A stretch of 64,000 bases of DNA from Candidatus Staskawiczbacteria bacterium RIFCSPLOWO2_01_FULL_33_13 (GTDB lineage: Bacteria; Patescibacteriota; Minisyncoccia; Minisyncoccales; Staskawiczbacteraceae). Position 1 is the stretch's first letter; each line of letters begins with the position of its first letter. The stretch is from the NCBI GenBank assembly GCA_001820215.1, contig MHOW01000006.1, positions 47,039 to 111,038 of the forward strand, written 5' to 3'. Position numbers and translations under genes: made by a program. This document shows positions 11,839-61,911 of the stretch, piece after piece. Below the pieces are notes generated by a model. That model saw only the letters and a program-made list of their open reading frames with translations, was not told the DNA's origin and ran no database searches.

Positions 11839-13079
11839 AATTAAAAAAAAGCGATCCGCAAATTGCAAAACTTATTAAATTAGAAACCCAACGCCAAGAA
11901 GATTCCCTACAAATGATTCCTTCTGAAAATCATTGTTCTTTTGCGGTACGCGAAGCTTTGGGCTCAATTTTGACTGATAAATATGCAGAGGGTTATCCTT
12001 CAAAAAGATATTATGGGGGGAATGAATTTATAGATAAAGTAGAAAATTTAGCTATTGAAAGGGTAAAAAAAATCTTCAAAGTTGAGCATGTAAATGTCCA
12101 ACCACATTCAGGTTCGCCTGCAAACGCAGGTGTATATATGGCAATATGCGAGCCAAAAGACACTATTATGGGCATGGCCTTGCAAATGGGAGGCCACTTA
12201 ACCCATGGGTTTAAATTAAGTTTTTCTGGTAAATTTTTTAACGCAGTACAATACGGACTTGATGAAAAAACGCATCTAATAAACTATGATGAAGTTGAAA
12301 AATTAGCAAAAGAACATAAACCTAAATTAATTTGGGTGGGGGGAAGTGCATATCCAAGGATTTTTGACTGGAAAAAAATGGGCCAAGTTGCAGATTCTGT
12401 GGGCGCATATTTAGTAGCCGATATAGCTCATATTGCGGGATTAATAGCAGGAGGCATACACCCAAGTCCTGTGCCATTTGTACATATTATAACTACTACT
12501 ACTCACAAAACACTACGAGGACCAAGGGGAGGCATTATTATGGTAACAAAAAAGGGCATTGAAAAAGACCCTGATTTACCTAAAAAAATTGATAAAGCAG
12601 TTTTTCCTGGGCTTCAAGGAGGGCCGCACGAAAACGCGATTGCGGCAATTGCAGTTTGCATAAAAGAAGCCTCAACTCCAGCTTTTAAAAAATATGCAGC
12701 CCAGGTTGTAAAAAATGCCAAAACACTGGCAGAAGAGTTAACAAAATATGGATTTAACTTAATAAGCGGTGGTACAGAGAATCATCTAATATTAATTGAT
12801 TTACGAAATAAAAATATTACAGGAGCTGATGCGCAAAATTTATTAGAAAAAATAGGAATGTCTATGAATAAAAATAGCATCCCCTATGACCCAGCCCCAC
12901 CTTTTAAGCCTTCTGGAATTAGAATGGGAACTCCTGCAATTACAACTCGGGGAATGAAAGAAAAAGAAATGAAACAAATTGCAATCTGGATAAACGAAGT
13001 AATATCAAACCCAGGGGCAGTAAAAAAAATTAGAGAAAAAATTAAGAAATTCTGTAAAAAATTTCCGTTGCCAAAATAA
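11835..13079 (+). CDS. glyA: serine hydroxymethyltransferase
   Basis: SENHCSFAVREALGS...YAEGYP...RYYGG. PLP-lysine region THKTLRGPRGG. Confidence 0.9.
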   Translation: MKLKKSDPQIAKLIKLETQRQEDSLQMIPSENHCSFAVREALGSILTDKYAEGYPSKRYYGGNEFIDKVENLAIERVKKIFKVEHVNVQPHSGSPANAGVYMAICEPKDTIMGMALQMGGHLTHGFKLSFSGKFFNAVQYGLDEKTHLINYDEVEKLAKEHKPKLIWVGGSAYPRIFDWKKMGQVADSVGAYLVADIAHIAGLIAGGIHPSPVPFVHIITTTTHKTLRGPRGGIIMVTKKGIEKDPDLPKKIDKAVFPGLQGGPHENAIAAIAVCIKEASTPAFKKYAAQVVKNAKTLAEELTKYGFNLISGGTENHLILIDLRNKNITGADAQNLLEKIGMSMNKNSIPYDPAPPFKPSGIRMGTPAITTRGMKEKEMKQIAIWINEVISNPGAVKKIREKIKKFCKKFPLPK

Positions 13080-13096
13080 ATAAATTATAGATCTAA

Positions 13097-13633
13097 ATGG
13101 TAATTGATTCTTATATTTTTGAATTTATTAATAGTTTTGCGGGAAAATGGCAGTTTTTAGATTTATTGGGAATATTTTTTGCAAAATACTTTGAATATTT
13201 TTTACTGTTTGCCTTAGTTATATTTTTAGTTAAAGATTTTAAAAAATATTGGAAAATGGTGACTGGGGCAGTGTTAGTCGCTTTTTTTGTAAGATTTGTA
13301 TTGGTGGAAATTTTTTATTGGTTACACTTTAGGGCAAGGCCTTTTGCAAACGGCTATATAAAGTCCCTGATTGATTATGATCCAGAAAAAACGGCTTTCC
13401 CCTCAGGCCACGCTTCATTCTATTTTGCGCTATCAACTATTATTTACGGATATAATAAAAAAGCAGGAATCTTATTTTTTATTGGAAGCTTTTTAATTGT
13501 ATTGGCTAGAGTTTTTGTGGGTCTTCATTGGCCATCAGATATTTTAGCCGGAGCAATACTAGGAATTATAATGGGAATAATTTTAAATAAACTATTTAAA
13601 AAAATACTACTTAAAAAACACCTTGATCAATAA
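13097..13633 (+). CDS. PAP2 family phosphatase (undecaprenyl-diphosphatase-like)
   Basis: PSGHASF and HWPSD motifs. Membrane protein. Confidence 0.7.
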   Translation: MVIDSYIFEFINSFAGKWQFLDLLGIFFAKYFEYFLLFALVIFLVKDFKKYWKMVTGAVLVAFFVRFVLVEIFYWLHFRARPFANGYIKSLIDYDPEKTAFPSGHASFYFALSTIIYGYNKKAGILFFIGSFLIVLARVFVGLHWPSDILAGAILGIIMGIILNKLFKKILLKKHLDQ

Positions 13634-13636
13634 TTC

Positions 13637-13682
13637 CACATACGAAAAAAGAAGAGATTAATCTCTTCTTTTTTCGTATGTG
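13637..13682. terminator. perfect palindrome, bidirectional terminator
   Basis: cacatacgaaaaaagaagagattaatctcttcttttttcgtatgtg, between the PAP2 gene (+) and tRNA-Leu (-). Confidence 0.6.
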
Positions 13683-13764
13683 CCCGAGGTGGGAGTTGAA
13701 CCCACATGATATTGCTATCGCGGGATTTTGAGTCCCGTGCGTCTGCCAATTCCGCCACCCGGGC
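13681..13764 (-). tRNA. tRNA-Leu (anticodon CAA)
   Basis: Reverse complement folds as a cloverleaf with a 7-bp acceptor stem GCCCGGG/CTCGGGC. Anticodon loop CUCAAAA. Long variable arm. T-loop GGTTCAACTCC. Confidence 0.85.
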
Positions 13765-13800
13765 AATTTATGATAAATTTATCATAAATTGATATTCACT

Positions 13801-15843
13801 TCAAGCTTCTTCTTTCTTAAAGTCACAATCTTTACTTGAGCACTTCACTTTTTTAGATTTTGTTTCAACTAATATTAAACCACATGTCGGACAAAACTCA
13901 TTGATTGGCTTATCCCATGCCGCAAAATCACATTTTGGATAATCATCACAACCATAAAATATTTTGCCTCTCCTGGTTTTTTTAGCTACCACCTGCCCCT
14001 TTTTGCATTTTGGACAAATAATATCTATTTTTATTGCCTGCGCTCCCGGATTATCTTTTATAATTGATTCGGTGTGTTTACAATCTGGAAATCCAGTACA
14101 GGCGTAAAATCTACCAAATCGCCCCATTTTATCAACCATATCTTTACCACATTTTGGACATTTTTTATCGGTTTTAATAGTTAAATCTTCTTTTGGAATT
14201 TCATCATATTTTTCTTTCAAATTTTTAGCAAATGGACCATAAAAATCTCCAACGATTTTTTCCCATACATCTTTACCTTCGGCTATTTCATCAAGCCCTT
14301 TTTCCATTTTTGCGGTAAATTCAATATCCACAATTTGCGGAAAATTTTTCACCAGCATTTCATTAACAATAGTTCCCATTTCAGTAGGCGCAAATCTTTT
14401 TTGTTCGTTTTTTGCTATGTAATTGCGGTCTTGTATCGTAGATAAAGTTGGTGCGTAGGTTGAAGGCCTGCCTATTCCATGAGATTCGAGTGCCTTAATC
14501 AGCGAAGCTTCGTTATAGCGGCTAGGAGGCTCGGTATAATGCTGGCTTGGATTTATTTTCACTAATTCCAATATTTCTTTCTCTTGTAATTTTGGCATTT
14601 CATTTTCTGAAAATTTCATCGGATAGATTTTTAAAAAGCCGTCAAATTTAAGCATTTGCCCATTAGCTCCAAAAATATATCCATTTCCCCCATTAATTTC
14701 AATAGAAGTTGAATCAAATATGGCTGGCGTCATTTGCGAGGCAATAAATCTTTGCCAAATTAAAGTATAAAGTTTAAGCTGCGCACCCTCTAATTCACTT
14801 TTCATAGATTCCGGAGTTTTATCCGCATAAGTAGGCCTTATGGCCTCGTGTGCTTCTTGAGCATTACCCTTAGCTTTAAATAGAGTGCCCTTAAAATAAT
14901 CATTGCCAAAAGATTTTTTAATAAACTCTTCAGATGCAATTAAAGAAGATTGGGAAAGATTCAAAGAGTCAGTTCTATGATAAGTAATATGCCCCTGCTC
15001 ATATAGTTTTTGAGCAACCGACATGGTCATTTTTGCAGTAAAATGGAATTTATTAGCCGCAGTTTGCTGCATGGTGCTTGTAGTAAATGGCGGCAGAGGA
15101 TTTCTTTTTGTTTCTTTTTTAGTAATTTTTTCTATTTGATACTTTGCGTTTTCTAAACCGACTAAAATTTCATCAGCATGTTTTTTATTTTTTATCTCTA
15201 GTTTATCAATAATTTTTCCGTCTTTTTTAATTAAAAAAGCAGAAAAATTTTTATTTTCCTTATTAAAGATTGCCTCAATCTCCCAATATTCCTCTGCAAT
15301 AAATTTTTTAATTTCTTCTTCTCGCTCAACTACTAATCGCACCGCCACTGATTGCACGCGCCCAGCAGAAAGCCCTTTTGATATTTTTTTCCATAAAAAA
15401 GGGGATAATTTATACCCCACAATTCTATCTAAAACCCTGCGGGCTTGTTGAGCATCTACCAAGTGCATATCTATCTTTCCAGGTGTTTTTAGAGCCTCTG
15501 CAATAGCGCTTTTAGTAATTTCGTGGAATACAATTCTTTTTGGATCTTTTAAATTCAGGGCCTCCGCCAAATGCCATGAAATAGATTCTCCTTCGCGATC
15601 TTGGTCAGTTGCTAAAATAACCTCATCAGCTAGTTTTGCCTCCTTCTTTAATTCAGCAATAACTTTTTTGGCTTTTGTAGGAATTACATATTTAGGCTCA
15701 AAGTTTTTTTCAACATTCACACCAAGTTCGCGTTTTGGTAAATCGCGCACATGACCAAAAGAAGCCACTACTTTATAGTTTTTTCCTAAAAAGCGGCTGA
15801 TTGTGCGTCCCTTGGTTGGGCTCTCCACCACAAGTAAAATCAT
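13801..15843 (-). CDS. topA: DNA topoisomerase I
   Basis: Toprim N-terminus LVVESPTKGRTI. Several C-terminal C4 zinc ribbons (CPKCGK..., CPTCG...). Confidence 0.9.
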   Translation of the reverse strand: MILLVVESPTKGRTISRFLGKNYKVVASFGHVRDLPKRELGVNVEKNFEPKYVIPTKAKKVIAELKKEAKLADEVILATDQDREGESISWHLAEALNLKDPKRIVFHEITKSAIAEALKTPGKIDMHLVDAQQARRVLDRIVGYKLSPFLWKKISKGLSAGRVQSVAVRLVVEREEEIKKFIAEEYWEIEAIFNKENKNFSAFLIKKDGKIIDKLEIKNKKHADEILVGLENAKYQIEKITKKETKRNPLPPFTTSTMQQTAANKFHFTAKMTMSVAQKLYEQGHITYHRTDSLNLSQSSLIASEEFIKKSFGNDYFKGTLFKAKGNAQEAHEAIRPTYADKTPESMKSELEGAQLKLYTLIWQRFIASQMTPAIFDSTSIEINGGNGYIFGANGQMLKFDGFLKIYPMKFSENEMPKLQEKEILELVKINPSQHYTEPPSRYNEASLIKALESHGIGRPSTYAPTLSTIQDRNYIAKNEQKRFAPTEMGTIVNEMLVKNFPQIVDIEFTAKMEKGLDEIAEGKDVWEKIVGDFYGPFAKNLKEKYDEIPKEDLTIKTDKKCPKCGKDMVDKMGRFGRFYACTGFPDCKHTESIIKDNPGAQAIKIDIICPKCKKGQVVAKKTRRGKIFYGCDDYPKCDFAAWDKPINEFCPTCGLILVETKSKKVKCSSKDCDFKKEEA

Positions 15844-25462: not shown

Positions 25463-25490
25463 CAAAAAAACAGCCCGCGGGCTGTTTTTT
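25463..25490. terminator. Rho-independent terminator (bidirectional)
   Basis: aaaaaaacagcccgcgggctgtttttt. GC stem flanked by A- and T-runs. Confidence 0.7.
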
Positions 25491-30742: not shown

Positions 30743-30810
30743 AATGTAATTCGTTTTCATTAATTTCCAATTCATTAATTTCCAACTGAAAAACCAACAA
30801 CAAGATCCGA

Positions 30811-30829
30811 CGACGCCCGACGTCGTTCT
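30811..30829. repeat. REP-like palindrome (copy 1)
   Basis: gacgacgcccgacgtcgtt, immediately downstream of the RAYT gene. Confidence 0.6.
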
Positions 30830-30849
30830 TAATAAGCACATTGTCTATT

Positions 30850-31614
30850 TTATTCAAGCAAAACATCGCCATATAAAGATGGATCTTTTTTGTACGAAAC
30901 CCATTCTGTCATATTATTTATTATGCCTTTTTCTTTACCCATAAATTCTGTTACGAAAATCCTCTCTGTTACAGAGGGGAAATTTTTAATACCTACATAA
31001 TCCGGAAAACTTGACCACCGATGACCTGTTTTCAAAAAATTAACAACTTCTTCAATCGAATGTTTTTTAATTCCCTGCTCTTTAAAATTTGGCTCGATTA
31101 AGGAAATGGGATTAGCGTGAATATAATTAATCACCATCATTAATTGATTATCGTCTTTAATAATTACAGAGCGAAACCTGTTTTGAAAAACATACCCCTT
31201 GCGCTGATGCTTTTGATTAAAATATCTTCCATATCCACTTCCTAATTTTACCATAAAATCATGTAATCCATTTTCGGTAATTTGCTTTAATAATAAATGG
31301 ATATGGTTAGGCATAAAACAAAATGCTAAAATATCAACCAATTTTTCCCTTATATCTATTTCGAGTTTTTCTATCTCTTCCAACAAATCAACCGACGACG
31401 CCCGACGTCGTCTTATTTGTAATGATATTTTTTCTTTTTGACGCTGTTCTCTGCGCTTCATTATACTTACTGGATTAGAATTATTAAATTCATATATAGA
31501 AAAAATTCCACGGTAAAAATCATCCTTATTTTTAAATATAATATTATTATCTATACCTCTTAAAATAATGTGATAAATATCACCATTAATAAATTCTTCT
31601 TTTCTGTATGGCAT
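30850..31614 (-). CDS. REP-associated tyrosine transposase / IS200-like Y1 transposase
   Basis: HUH motif (MPNHIHLLL) and catalytic Tyr (NYIHANP). About 250 aa. Flanked by inverted GC-rich REP palindromes. Confidence 0.7.
   Translation of the reverse strand: MPYRKEEFINGDIYHIILRGIDNNIIFKNKDDFYRGIFSIYEFNNSNPVSIMKRREQRQKEKISLQIRRRRASSVDLLEEIEKLEIDIREKLVDILAFCFMPNHIHLLLKQITENGLHDFMVKLGSGYGRYFNQKHQRKGYVFQNRFRSVIIKDDNQLMMVINYIHANPISLIEPNFKEQGIKKHSIEEVVNFLKTGHRWSSFPDYVGIKNFPSVTERIFVTEFMGKEKGIINNMTEWVSYKKDPSLYGDVLLE
31391..31409. repeat. REP-like palindrome (copy 2, in-frame inside the RAYT gene)
   Basis: gacgacgcccgacgtcgtc encodes RRRRASSV on the minus strand. Confidence 0.6.
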
Positions 31615-31624
31615 AATTAAGTCG

Positions 31625-31670
31625 ACGTCGGGCGTCGTCTTCGTCGTCTTCCGTCGTCTTCTTTGTCTAT
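31625..31670. repeat. REP-like palindrome (copy 3, inverted) plus 3x cgtcgtctt tandem
   Basis: gacgtcgggcgtcgtc is the reverse complement of copies 1 and 2, followed by ttcgtcgtcttccgtcgtctt. Confidence 0.6.
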
Positions 31671-32638
31671 TTTAATTGTTTTTTTGGTTTAAAATACAAT
31701 GGATCACTTAATATAGTTTTATATTTTACTGGCAAAACTATTCTTGGAATTTTCACATCACTACCTCCTTTGCGACCCATTGTAACAGGAGGCATATCTT
31801 TACCTTTTCGTAAATTATTAATAAAATCTAATTTTCGTGAATAAAGTTTTTCTGGATTCGTTAATGCGACCACCGCGCTTTCGCAAAGATCTTCTCGTGG
31901 ATCAACTTCTCGGGCATACTTAGAAACACATATTTCTGGCATAGTGGTTTCGTATAATGTAGAATCGCCACCGTCAAGGTTTCTAGACACATCTGTAAAT
32001 CTCCAGCCAAATTTTTTTGACCAATTAGCTATAACCAAATCCACTGCACCTTCAACTTTATGAAAAAATTCATGAATAAGGGTTCCCAAAAAATTTGATA
32101 CTCCCTGAAAATTTGGATTTTTTTCTTCTGACCTATAATCATTGTTTAAATCTGTTCCTTTTGGATAAATTCTAACCACATCATCATTGTACTGAACATG
32201 CCCCCTCATTTCTTCGCCAGTATTTTTATTTATTGGTTTTTTATCATCAATAAGTATATATTTTACCCTTCTTAGCGGCTCACCCTCTACTGTAGACAAA
32301 AGTTCTACTGCTCTTTTTAATTCTTCTAAATGTTGCCGCTGTAATTGTTCATTAAAGTTATACAAAGAAATTTCATGCTCTCCAATCTTTATATCAATTT
32401 GTTCTTTTGGCAAACCCTTTTCCTGCCAATATTTTTGTAACCACCAATTTTGTTGAATTAATTTTTCTCTAACAAACTTTTCTATATCAATCTGCAATGT
32501 TTTTGACGAAAAAATTACTGCCTCAAAAGCATCGCCATATCCAGGTTCTCCCTTAAAAACTTCTGTAAGACCTATGTCCTTGGCAGATTGATATTCTGGA
32601 TTTATTCCTTGATTTGGATCTTTTTCAAAACCTTCCAT
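31667..32638 (-). CDS. hypothetical protein with HExxH metallopeptidase-like motif
   Basis: LIHEFFHKVEG. No signal peptide seen. Confidence 0.35.
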   Translation of the reverse strand: MEGFEKDPNQGINPEYQSAKDIGLTEVFKGEPGYGDAFEAVIFSSKTLQIDIEKFVREKLIQQNWWLQKYWQEKGLPKEQIDIKIGEHEISLYNFNEQLQRQHLEELKRAVELLSTVEGEPLRRVKYILIDDKKPINKNTGEEMRGHVQYNDDVVRIYPKGTDLNNDYRSEEKNPNFQGVSNFLGTLIHEFFHKVEGAVDLVIANWSKKFGWRFTDVSRNLDGGDSTLYETTMPEICVSKYAREVDPREDLCESAVVALTNPEKLYSRKLDFINNLRKGKDMPPVTMGRKGGSDVKIPRIVLPVKYKTILSDPLYFKPKKQLK

Positions 32639-42686: not shown

Positions 42687-42700
42687 TATTGATTATTATA

Positions 42701-42731
42701 AAAAAACAGCCCATCGGGGGCTGTTTTTTTA
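42701..42731 (+). terminator. Rho-independent terminator
   Basis: aaaaaacagcccatcgggggctgttttttt. Confidence 0.7.
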
Positions 42732-42742
42732 TTACGAATTAC

Positions 42743-61833: not shown

Positions 61834-61852
61834 ATATATGTCTTGGTAAACA

Positions 61853-61879
61853 TAAAAAACAGCGCATGCGCTGTTTTTT
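61853..61879. terminator. Rho-independent terminator (bidirectional)
   Basis: aaaaaacagcgcatgcgctgtttttt. Confidence 0.7.
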
Positions 61880-61911
61880 ATTGTATTTAAATATTACTTT
61901 TAATTTTTTAA

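Follow-up and report, generated by a model that had tools for sequence, protein, structure and literature searches.

A resident RAYT-like gene with three matching hairpins, one of them in frame, in a Candidatus Staskawiczbacteria genome

The host role of REP-associated tyrosine transposases (RAYTs), the enzymes named for their link to repetitive extragenic palindromes (REPs), is still unsettled. Their distribution is housekeeping-like, with single- or low-copy genes that are inherited vertically (Bertels et al. 2017, PMC5581495). The signature 'Y---NP' marks class 2 of the TnpAY1 enzymes (Table 1 in Quentin, Siguier, Chandler and Fichant 2018, PMC6006769), and the main text of the same paper describes REPs that lie in frame inside tnpAREP genes of subclass 2.4 (Bertels group 4), which occurs in Cyanobacteria and Bacteroidetes. 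As characterized there, members of this subclass carry NH[IFV]H, WQ and YIxNNP motifs and a variable insertion between beta3 and alphaC, and have a median length of 194 aa. The presence of a REP inside its own tnpAREP gene is therefore already published as a phenomenon, and intragenic REPs have been listed in many other genes (Di Nocera et al. 2013, PMC3733652). Here we describe a RAYT-like gene accompanied by three copies of a GC-rich hairpin, one of which lies inside the reading frame. The locus is found in a 64,000-nucleotide stretch (hereafter the window) of contig MHOW01000006.1 from Candidatus Staskawiczbacteria bacterium RIFCSPLOWO2_01_FULL_33_13, an organism of the candidate phyla radiation (CPR). 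An earlier note on this DNA had judged RAYT/REP systems to be scarcely documented in ultra-small AT-rich genomes, and we found no paper that links RAYT, REPtron or TnpAREP to CPR, except for one mention in a KEGG annotation.

We interpret the locus as a REPtron-like unit, a reading to which we assign a probability of roughly two in three. It would consist of a resident, vertically inherited RAYT-type HUH/Y1 nuclease-ligase for single-stranded DNA (ssDNA) and three cognate hairpin copies. This interpretation draws directly on the fold and motifs of the protein, on a three-site layout observed across its family, on the concerted evolution of the hairpins, on synteny, and on the near absence of dispersed copies. 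Binding and cutting of the hairpins by the enzyme, and their copying by it, would probably complete the picture, and the internal copy may in addition restrict expression of the gene. The locus comprises the following features, given in window coordinates.

30850..31614, minus strand: RAYT-like HUH/Y1 gene, 254 aa (open reading frame (ORF), profile, alignment, AlphaFold (AF2) and fold evidence)
31123..31125, minus strand: codon of the catalytic Tyr164, in NYIHANP (class-2 'Y---NP' signature; codon position from the sequence)
31297..31305, minus strand: HUH codons H104-I105-H106, within FCFMPNHIHLL (AF2 strand E104-111)
31363..31464, minus strand: family-specific helical insertion, residues 51-84 (AF2 helices H51-71 and H74-84, with a predicted confidence score (pLDDT) of 65-78)
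30808..30828, plus strand: downstream hairpin, a REP-like copy with one mismatch to the 19-mer (19.7 bits, E 1.8e-3; -7.3 kcal/mol as ssDNA)
31393..31413, plus strand: internal in-frame hairpin with the exact 19-mer, encoding R68-S74 (23 bits, E 1.6e-4; -8.2/-7.9 kcal/mol per strand)
31620..31640, minus strand: upstream hairpin, inverted relative to the other two (21.6 bits, E 4.6e-4)
31633..31660, plus strand: three tandem CGTCGTCTT units, each a hairpin arm plus tail (read from the sequence)

Sequence comparison and structure prediction both support the identification of the protein as an HUH/Y1 enzyme of the RAYT type. Its Pfam match is Y1_Tnp (E 2.6e-10), and the residues H104 and H106 (NHIH) and Y164, N168 and P169 (YIHANP) are invariant in alignments of 29 and 115 homologues. 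An AF2 model built from 115 sequences has a mean pLDDT of 88. Because a sequence-based search of the PDB returned weak matches for this protein (E 0.015-0.06), a comparison of folds was needed. The top Foldseek match in the PDB (E 1.1e-5) is 4er8_A, which is Escherichia coli TnpAREP in complex with a REP hairpin; the TnpA proteins of IS608 and ISDra2 come next. The Y1/HUH transposase hallmarks that the earlier note had read from the letters are thus borne out by motif conservation, profile and fold alike.

Relative to the TnpAREP, IS608 and ISDra2 enzymes, the protein carries two additions. One is the insertion at residues 51-84, which the AF2 model places between helix A and the strand preceding HUH, and the profile alignment with 4er8 begins only downstream of this segment. 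The peptide encoded by the internal hairpin is predicted to form the turn between the two inserted helices, where model confidence is lower (pLDDT 65-78). The second addition is a C-terminal extension. In addition, FQ (in YVFQNRF) stands where WQ is expected. Scans with Rfam, PHROGs and PADLOC returned nothing relevant to the locus. Viral contigs hold no close relatives of the protein, yielding two distant matches to its core at 28-30% identity. The window contains a single copy of the gene.

We searched the full window for the 19-mer GACGACGCCCGACGTCGTC, allowing up to three mismatches and using 100 shuffles as a control. The sites are 30809-30827 (plus strand, one mismatch), 31394-31412 (plus strand, exact) and 31621-31639 (minus strand, one mismatch). 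There is no further match in the 64 kb at this threshold and none in the shuffles, and a fourth listed match is merely the near-palindromic reverse strand of the internal copy. The same relationships emerge as longer repeats: the downstream and internal copies share CCGACGACGCCCGACGTCGT, a 20-nt exact direct repeat (30807-30826 and 31392-31411), and the internal and upstream copies form a 25-nt inverted repeat with 92% identity (31394-31418 and 31615-31639). Each unit in the window consists of a 7-bp stem with a CCCGA loop, folds as ssDNA with -7.3 to -9.7 kcal/mol (z = -2.6 to -3.8), and is followed by a CTTAWT-like tail that is common to all three copies. The internal copy is oriented as the downstream copy, and the upstream copy is inverted. 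Read in frame, the internal hairpin is AGA CGA CGT CGG GCG TCG TCG, or R68-R-R-R-A-S-S74.

The two outer copies lie close to the gene. The downstream hairpin, whose loop reads TCGGG on the sense strand of the gene, is located 23 nt past the stop codon and 65 nt ahead of the holA start. The stem of the upstream hairpin ends 6 nt ahead of the ATG, and the 52-nt gap to the stop of the upstream gene is nearly filled by this hairpin and the CGTCGTCTT units (31633-31641, 31642-31650 and 31652-31660). The gene and 150 nt on each side are identical in 10 independent assemblies from ENA, JGI and NCBI, including a metagenome-assembled genome (MAG) labelled Parcubacteria (GCA_001820135.1), and thus the locus is not an assembly artefact. 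All elements described in the earlier note are therefore real, comprising the inverted flanking palindromes, the third, exact 19-mer in frame within the gene and the threefold tandem beside the upstream copy, although their positions had been placed 2-4 nt off.

To what extent these hairpins represent a wider class can be judged from a covariance model made from 58 hairpins, all of which come from loci in other species and not from the window. Run with filters off, the model finds exactly three sites in the window, at 23, 21.6 and 19.7 bits (E 1.6e-4 to 1.8e-3), and the next match has an E value of 0.67. The window hairpins thus belong to a family-wide class, of which no other hairpin, with any stem, is found by the model in the 64 kb.

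The protein family is large. A word-indexed search gives 1884 matches, the best 120 of which are full-length with 52-71% identity, and an exhaustive search gives 4222 cluster representatives at E <= 1e-10. In the protein alignment, most homologues have RRRAS, GRPTS, RRRTS or similar peptides at the position of the hairpin-encoded peptide. Since RRRAS-type peptides are the expected translation of a GC-rich palindrome, 79 homologous loci were fetched for a hairpin scan. These were taken from a one-genome-per-species collection and are labelled as CPR/Patescibacteria-type MAGs (Staskawicz-, Nealson-, Wildermuth- and Moranbacteria, Paceibacterota, and bins labelled Saccharibacteria).

Three sites recur across this sample. 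Relative to the ATG, the median end of the upstream hairpin is at -12 nt, the in-frame hairpin starts at a median of +198.5 nt in the gene (range 178-287), and the downstream hairpin starts at a median of +6 nt from the stop. Hairpin density is 3.9 per kb in the linker window, versus 0.048 per kb in the remaining coding sequence (CDS). Internal hairpins are present in all deep branches of a neighbour-joining tree, and the internal site is therefore taken to be ancestral; several members scored as lacking it retain degenerate or AT-rich paired remnants. The possibility raised earlier that the RRRRASSV segment would be missing from homologues is not realized, as an equivalent hairpin-encoded peptide occupies the same place family-wide. 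Thus, this segment is ancestral and maintained, rather than a one-off insertion.

The orientation of the loop is less regular than its position. The counts of C-rich and G-rich loops on the sense strand are 19 and 16 for upstream, 15 and 19 for internal, and 11 and 30 for downstream hairpins, and of the loci where both orientations could be scored, 16 have inverted and 8 have direct upstream and downstream copies. Such variation across sites and loci is less readily reconciled with a fixed RNA structure than with an element that acts at the DNA level and is readable on both strands.

Within a locus the hairpins match, and between loci the stems are wholly different. For example, GCCCGAGC-TCGGG-GCTCGGGC is present three times in locus L023, and GCGGAGA-CCCGT-TCTCCGC three times in L014. 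We quantified this identity in 77 loci by the longest word of at least 12 nt shared between two regions. Such a word is shared by the internal and upstream regions of the same locus in 44 of 77 cases, by the internal and downstream regions in 54 of 77, and by the upstream and downstream regions in 61 of 77, the last compared with 13 of 457 cross-locus pairs. Cross-locus controls overall give 3-5%, and the remainder of the gene shares such a word with either flank in 1-3 of the 77 loci.

Closely related loci reveal how this identity is maintained. In the sisters L014 and L021 (71% protein identity), a change of AGA to AAG is compensated in the opposite arm and is found in all three copies. The sisters L029 and L041 (82% identity, same flanking DNA) hold two hairpin types, and the internal site is of the upstream type in L029 and of the downstream type in L041, including the derived ACAGG loop of that lineage. 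This difference implies that the in-frame site was overwritten from a neighbouring site after the lineages split. Taken together, the coordinated, compensated changes and the L029/L041 swap indicate that the copies are homogenised by copying.

The 58 distinct hairpins with CCCG(A/T) loops also reveal which positions vary. This set was selected for its loop and its five innermost pairs; 94.6% of its cells are paired, with double changes at all 8 pairs. G5-A6 and T16-C17 are nearly invariant; neither this G-A/T-C step nor the outer pairs had been a criterion of selection.

The gene occupies a fixed position in the genome. Another 12 species-level loci share the order fpg-RAYT-holA(-rpsT), with an fpg that is 56-71% and a holA that is 50-66% identical to that of the window; the downstream gene encodes DNA polymerase III delta according to Pfam. 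This constancy across species argues for a resident, vertically inherited gene and not for a hopping insertion sequence (IS). Several genomes hold two to four RAYT-like paralogs, which are divergent, with no near-identical copies seen.

Some further features of this neighbourhood deserve mention. Between fpg and the RAYT-like gene, the window contains an ORF of 323 aa (31667-32638, minus strand) with an HExxH motif (LIHEFFHKVEG) and no Pfam or PADLOC match. This ORF is missing from the 12 syntenic relatives, in which fpg and the RAYT gene are immediate neighbours, and therefore is apparently a lineage-specific insertion. A perfect 15-nt tandem repeat, TTCATTAATTTCCAA x2 (30756-30785), separates the downstream hairpin from the holA start (30742) and could be a promoter or operator element of holA. 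A 12-nt exact direct repeat, TTGTCTATTTTA (30841-30852 and 31663-31674), overlaps the stop codons of both the RAYT and the 323-aa genes, and its two copies, oddly placed, bracket the upstream hairpin and the ORF. We rejected this pair as a target-site duplication, because its length is near the chance expectation in 2.5 kb of AT-rich DNA.

Some relatives also have hairpin copies away from the gene. In 523 kb of flanking sequence from 64 loci, 11 loci have copies at a distance of more than 300 nt. L037 has four distant copies, and its type recurs in L052 of the same genome, an exception to the paralog-specific hairpin types found in most of the tested genomes with several paralogs. In L071, copies occur in tandem and as doublets, and one of them lies within a 532-aa ORF; L060 has two copies within a 1609-aa ORF. 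Head-to-head doublets resembling REPINs are present in L013, L027, L038, L054, L071, L072 and L081, and are sometimes in frame in the gene. Doublets, distant copies and paralog-specific types all represent REP-like behaviour, in a population that is small and concentrated on the gene.

Of the 120 stretches listed from a metagenome scan with a 17-mer, nearly all have one match that is due to chance and lie in GC-rich contigs (median GC 67%). The one informative match among those listed is L151 (contig Ga0315273_10302230, 33% GC), in which the 20-mer AGACGACGTCGGGCGTCGTC at 460-482 is in frame within the N-terminal domain of a seryl-tRNA synthetase (Pfam Seryl_tRNA_N, E 2.6e-19) and is translated as ...DLDDARRRLLTEVE... 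The GC-rich codons of this repeat are atypical for so AT-rich a genome, and L151 looks like a REP copy that has been written into another gene of a related organism.

Other sequence patterns adjoin the hairpins of some family members. Repeats of an isolated hairpin arm, often with the first loop bases, adjoin 12 of 154 family hairpins versus 1 in a shuffled control. They are found in L028 (past the stop), L019, L024, L039, L063, L065 and L084, and in L028 the arm is repeated in tandem up to 4-5 times (TCTCCCAATAA...). The CGTCGTCTT triplet in the window conforms to this pattern, and such arms may have been left behind by slippage or by successive rounds of cleavage and joining. In L037 (2635-2830 and 8159-8175), L033 and L071, the repeated unit has a conserved AGCT at a distance of two nucleotides from the foot of the hairpin (AGCTGACAGAGACC...). 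It is possibly a guide or cleavage motif, and is missing from the window.

Two other cases concern sequence quality. In L006 (13742-14275), an older scaffold of the same species diverges from the other nine contigs inside a terminator hairpin, beyond which it carries a Y1 gene that is truncated at its 5' end and belongs to a different paralog type (DNHYH, YVNLINP). The divergence is either a strain polymorphism or a chimeric assembly, and this second Y1 gene was excluded from the analysis as possibly chimeric. A 213-aa 'partial' protein (P0001) reflects truncation at a contig end and is not a rearranged form.

By analogy with TnpAREP and IS608-type enzymes, the protein would recognize the hairpin on ssDNA, cut near it, and be able to rejoin the strands. 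The likely determinants of recognition are the inner stem G-A...T-C step and the CCCG(A/T) loop, with the outer stem free to vary. The three copies might then constitute one tiny REP population that is kept alike by copying or replacement between sites, for which the simplest agent would be the enzyme's own cleave-and-rejoin chemistry near its gene. The internal copy would be translated into a short hydrophilic turn (RRRRASS in the window) that is tolerated by the fold, and it presumably survives because it is located in the variable helical linker.

Several observations weigh against a REPtron-like unit. The best NCBIfam match of the protein, NF047646 (REP_Tyr_transpos), scores 50.7 bits and does not reach the cut-off of 80. 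The preference for RAYT over IS200 therefore holds in rank, with the IS200 model NF033573 behind at 17.4 bits (cut-off 55), and falls short in absolute score. The window hairpin begins with GACG and lacks the GT[AG]G foot of canonical REPs; GTAG or GTGG starts do occur in the relatives L027, L029, L036, L039, L057 and L064. No flanking tetranucleotide is conserved across the family in 110 oriented hairpins, where only A-rich 5' and T-rich 3' flanks are apparent, and the variable orientation of the loop relative to the gene means that no fixed strand logic can be read. With 0 dispersed copies of the window type in 64 kb, the 'repetitive extragenic' property is not demonstrated for this genome. 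Given the profile score, the missing foot and this lack of dispersal, the 'classic' RAYT/REP arrangement described in the earlier note is too strong a term, even if the note identified the right kind of system. Finally, the copies could in principle stay alike through selection for pairing between sites, or through recombination without the enzyme, and the sole direct argument for copying, the L029/L041 replacement, is silent on the agent.

Alternative explanations assign different functions to the same hairpins. They might serve mainly as expression controls, the flanking copies insulating the gene and the internal copy acting as an attenuator or an operator for autorepression, such that a dangerous nuclease is held at a very low level, as with IS200 stem-loops. 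The placement of the upstream hairpin 6 nt from the ATG, in a gap of 52 nt that leaves no room for a promoter, speaks for such a role. A simple scan calls all three window sites terminator-like, and forms with an A-run, stem and T-run occur even within the CDS in some relatives (L019, L029 and L070). However, a T-rich tail on the sense strand (at least 5 T in 8) follows 4 of 45 upstream, 4 of 40 internal and 7 of 55 downstream hairpins, and with such tails this rare we rejected the classic terminator reading. The free flipping of the loop between sites and loci fits a DNA element better than a fixed RNA, and expression control leaves unexplained why three sites share one sequence per locus. 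We consider it unlikely that this is their main function. A regulatory role is nonetheless possible and does not exclude a REPtron-like unit, as both could coexist.

It is more doubtful still that the locus is an autonomous IS of the IS200/IS605 type, with the outer hairpins as left and right ends and the gene moving with them. The Y1 fold, the close flanking of the ORF by hairpins on both sides and the two to four paralogs in several genomes would be consistent with such an element, yet the fpg-RAYT-holA order is conserved while the neighbouring genes are only 50-71% identical, and the paralogs within a genome are divergent, mostly with their own hairpin types and with no near-identical copies seen. 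Furthermore, the IS200 profile scores far below its cut-off (17.4 versus 55 bits), the motif is Y---NP versus the Y---Q of IS200, both ends carry the same palindrome, mostly inverted, versus distinct one-strand left and right ends, and close relatives are absent from the viral contigs. The least probable proposal is a genetic switch operated by recombination between the repeats. The geometry in the window is suggestive. The upstream and internal copies are 196 nt apart, and an exchange within their 25-nt inverted repeat would flip the 5' end of the gene; the internal and downstream copies are 585 nt apart, and an exchange within their 20-nt direct repeat would remove its catalytic part. However, the ten independent assemblies are identical, although their contigs were retrieved by exact protein match and so are blind to rearranged forms, and the relative orientations of the copies differ among loci, so that there is no conserved switch geometry.

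A REPtron-like unit thus remains our favoured explanation, and a stronger version of it can be put forward tentatively. In this version, the in-frame hairpin would be more than a passenger that the gene tolerates: it would be a cis-element that a self-contained module of three sites cannot do without. The enzyme would act at the start, in the middle and at the end of its gene, either for autoregulation or because these sites are its true substrate, and the module would have been kept since the origin of the family in CPR, in genomes with almost no further copies. If this were correct, a RAYT-type enzyme could persist for reasons beyond the spreading of REPs genome-wide. A RAYT-like gene is found at a fixed place in bacterial genomes that are among the smallest, and its hairpins number about three and are all located on the gene, which is hard to reconcile with a repeat-spreading role alone. 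The family also comprises dozens of natural pairs of enzyme and hairpin, with a variable outer stem and a fixed loop and G-A/T-C step. These pairs form a ready data set for studying hairpin recognition by HUH enzymes, a matter of relevance to HUH tags for protein-DNA coupling. The sister loci, in turn, provide a clean case of concerted evolution in very short repeats, one of which is also coding.

Elsewhere in the window, cumulative GC skew is highest near 13 kb, from where it declines steadily as far as about 37 kb. Near this switch (about 13000-14000) lies a perfect palindrome of 46 nt with a 21-bp stem (13637-13682), and the two together may mark a replication origin or terminus. Bidirectional hairpins of the terminator type, with an A-run, a CAGCCC/CAGCGC stem and a T-run, are located between genes at 25465-25490, 42698-42732 and 61852-61881. 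They are unrelated to the RAYT class and are left unscored by the covariance model.

Among described systems, the E. coli TnpAREP/REPtron (4ER8; subclass 2.2 in Quentin et al. 2018) shares with the window locus the HUH/Y1 fold and the Y---NP motif, as well as cognate GC-rich flanking hairpins that are mostly inverted. Low copy number, divergent paralogs and vertical inheritance are also common to both, and REPIN-like doublets are present in relatives of the window gene. The same housekeeping-like pattern is seen in the RAYTs of Bertels et al. 2017. In contrast, the window protein is only ~12% identical to E. coli TnpAREP, misses the NCBIfam RAYT cut-off (50.7 versus 80 bits), is ~90 residues longer owing to the helical insertion ahead of HUH and the C-terminal extension, and has FQ instead of WQ/WE. 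Its hairpins lack the GT[AG]G foot of E. coli REPs and form a population that is essentially confined to the gene, with 0 others in 64 kb.

Subclass 2.4, as it is presented in the main text of PMC6006769, resembles the window family in having a REP copy inside the reading frame of the enzyme, with the frame intact, and a HuH of the NH[IFV]H type. Its 'double-foot' hairpins, GT[AG]G...C[TC]AC, are likewise found in some relatives of the window gene (L064, L027 and L029). Set against the same description, the insertion of the window family precedes the HuH (helix A to strand 2, residues 51-84), and the protein has FQ and YIHANP versus the WQ and YIxNNP of the shorter subclass 2.4 enzymes and belongs to a different phylum, CPR. 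Thus, NHIH fits membership in subclass 2.4, whereas WQ, YIxNNP and the position of the insertion do not. In addition, the site of the internal copy is fixed across the sampled family and this copy co-evolves with the flanks, features that the main text of that paper does not describe for subclass 2.4.

Other relatives are more distant. With the TnpA proteins of IS200/IS605 elements (IS608, ISDra2), the window family shares the catalytic fold and probably the recognition of hairpins in ssDNA, which is known for those enzymes. It differs from these elements in that they have Y---Q, are multicopy and mobile, possess distinct one-strand ends and are not tied to a conserved place in the chromosome. 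Intragenic REPs and Rickettsia palindromic elements (PMC3733652) are also in-frame, translated palindromic repeats, comparable to that of L151, but are scattered and lineage-specific, whereas the window family has a single site in its own gene that is occupied across the deep family.

What distinguishes the window family from published systems is therefore its phylum, its motifs (NHIH, FQ and YIHANP), its length (about 245 aa) and an insertion ahead of the HuH, together with the constancy of the in-frame site across a deep family, its co-evolution with the flanks and the near absence of a dispersed population. Its motifs and length fit none of the listed subclasses exactly. The family appears RAYT-like in mechanism and architecture, and we have filed it in no described subclass. 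It represents a known kind of system whose lineage is unexpected and whose form is minimal and unusually tidy.

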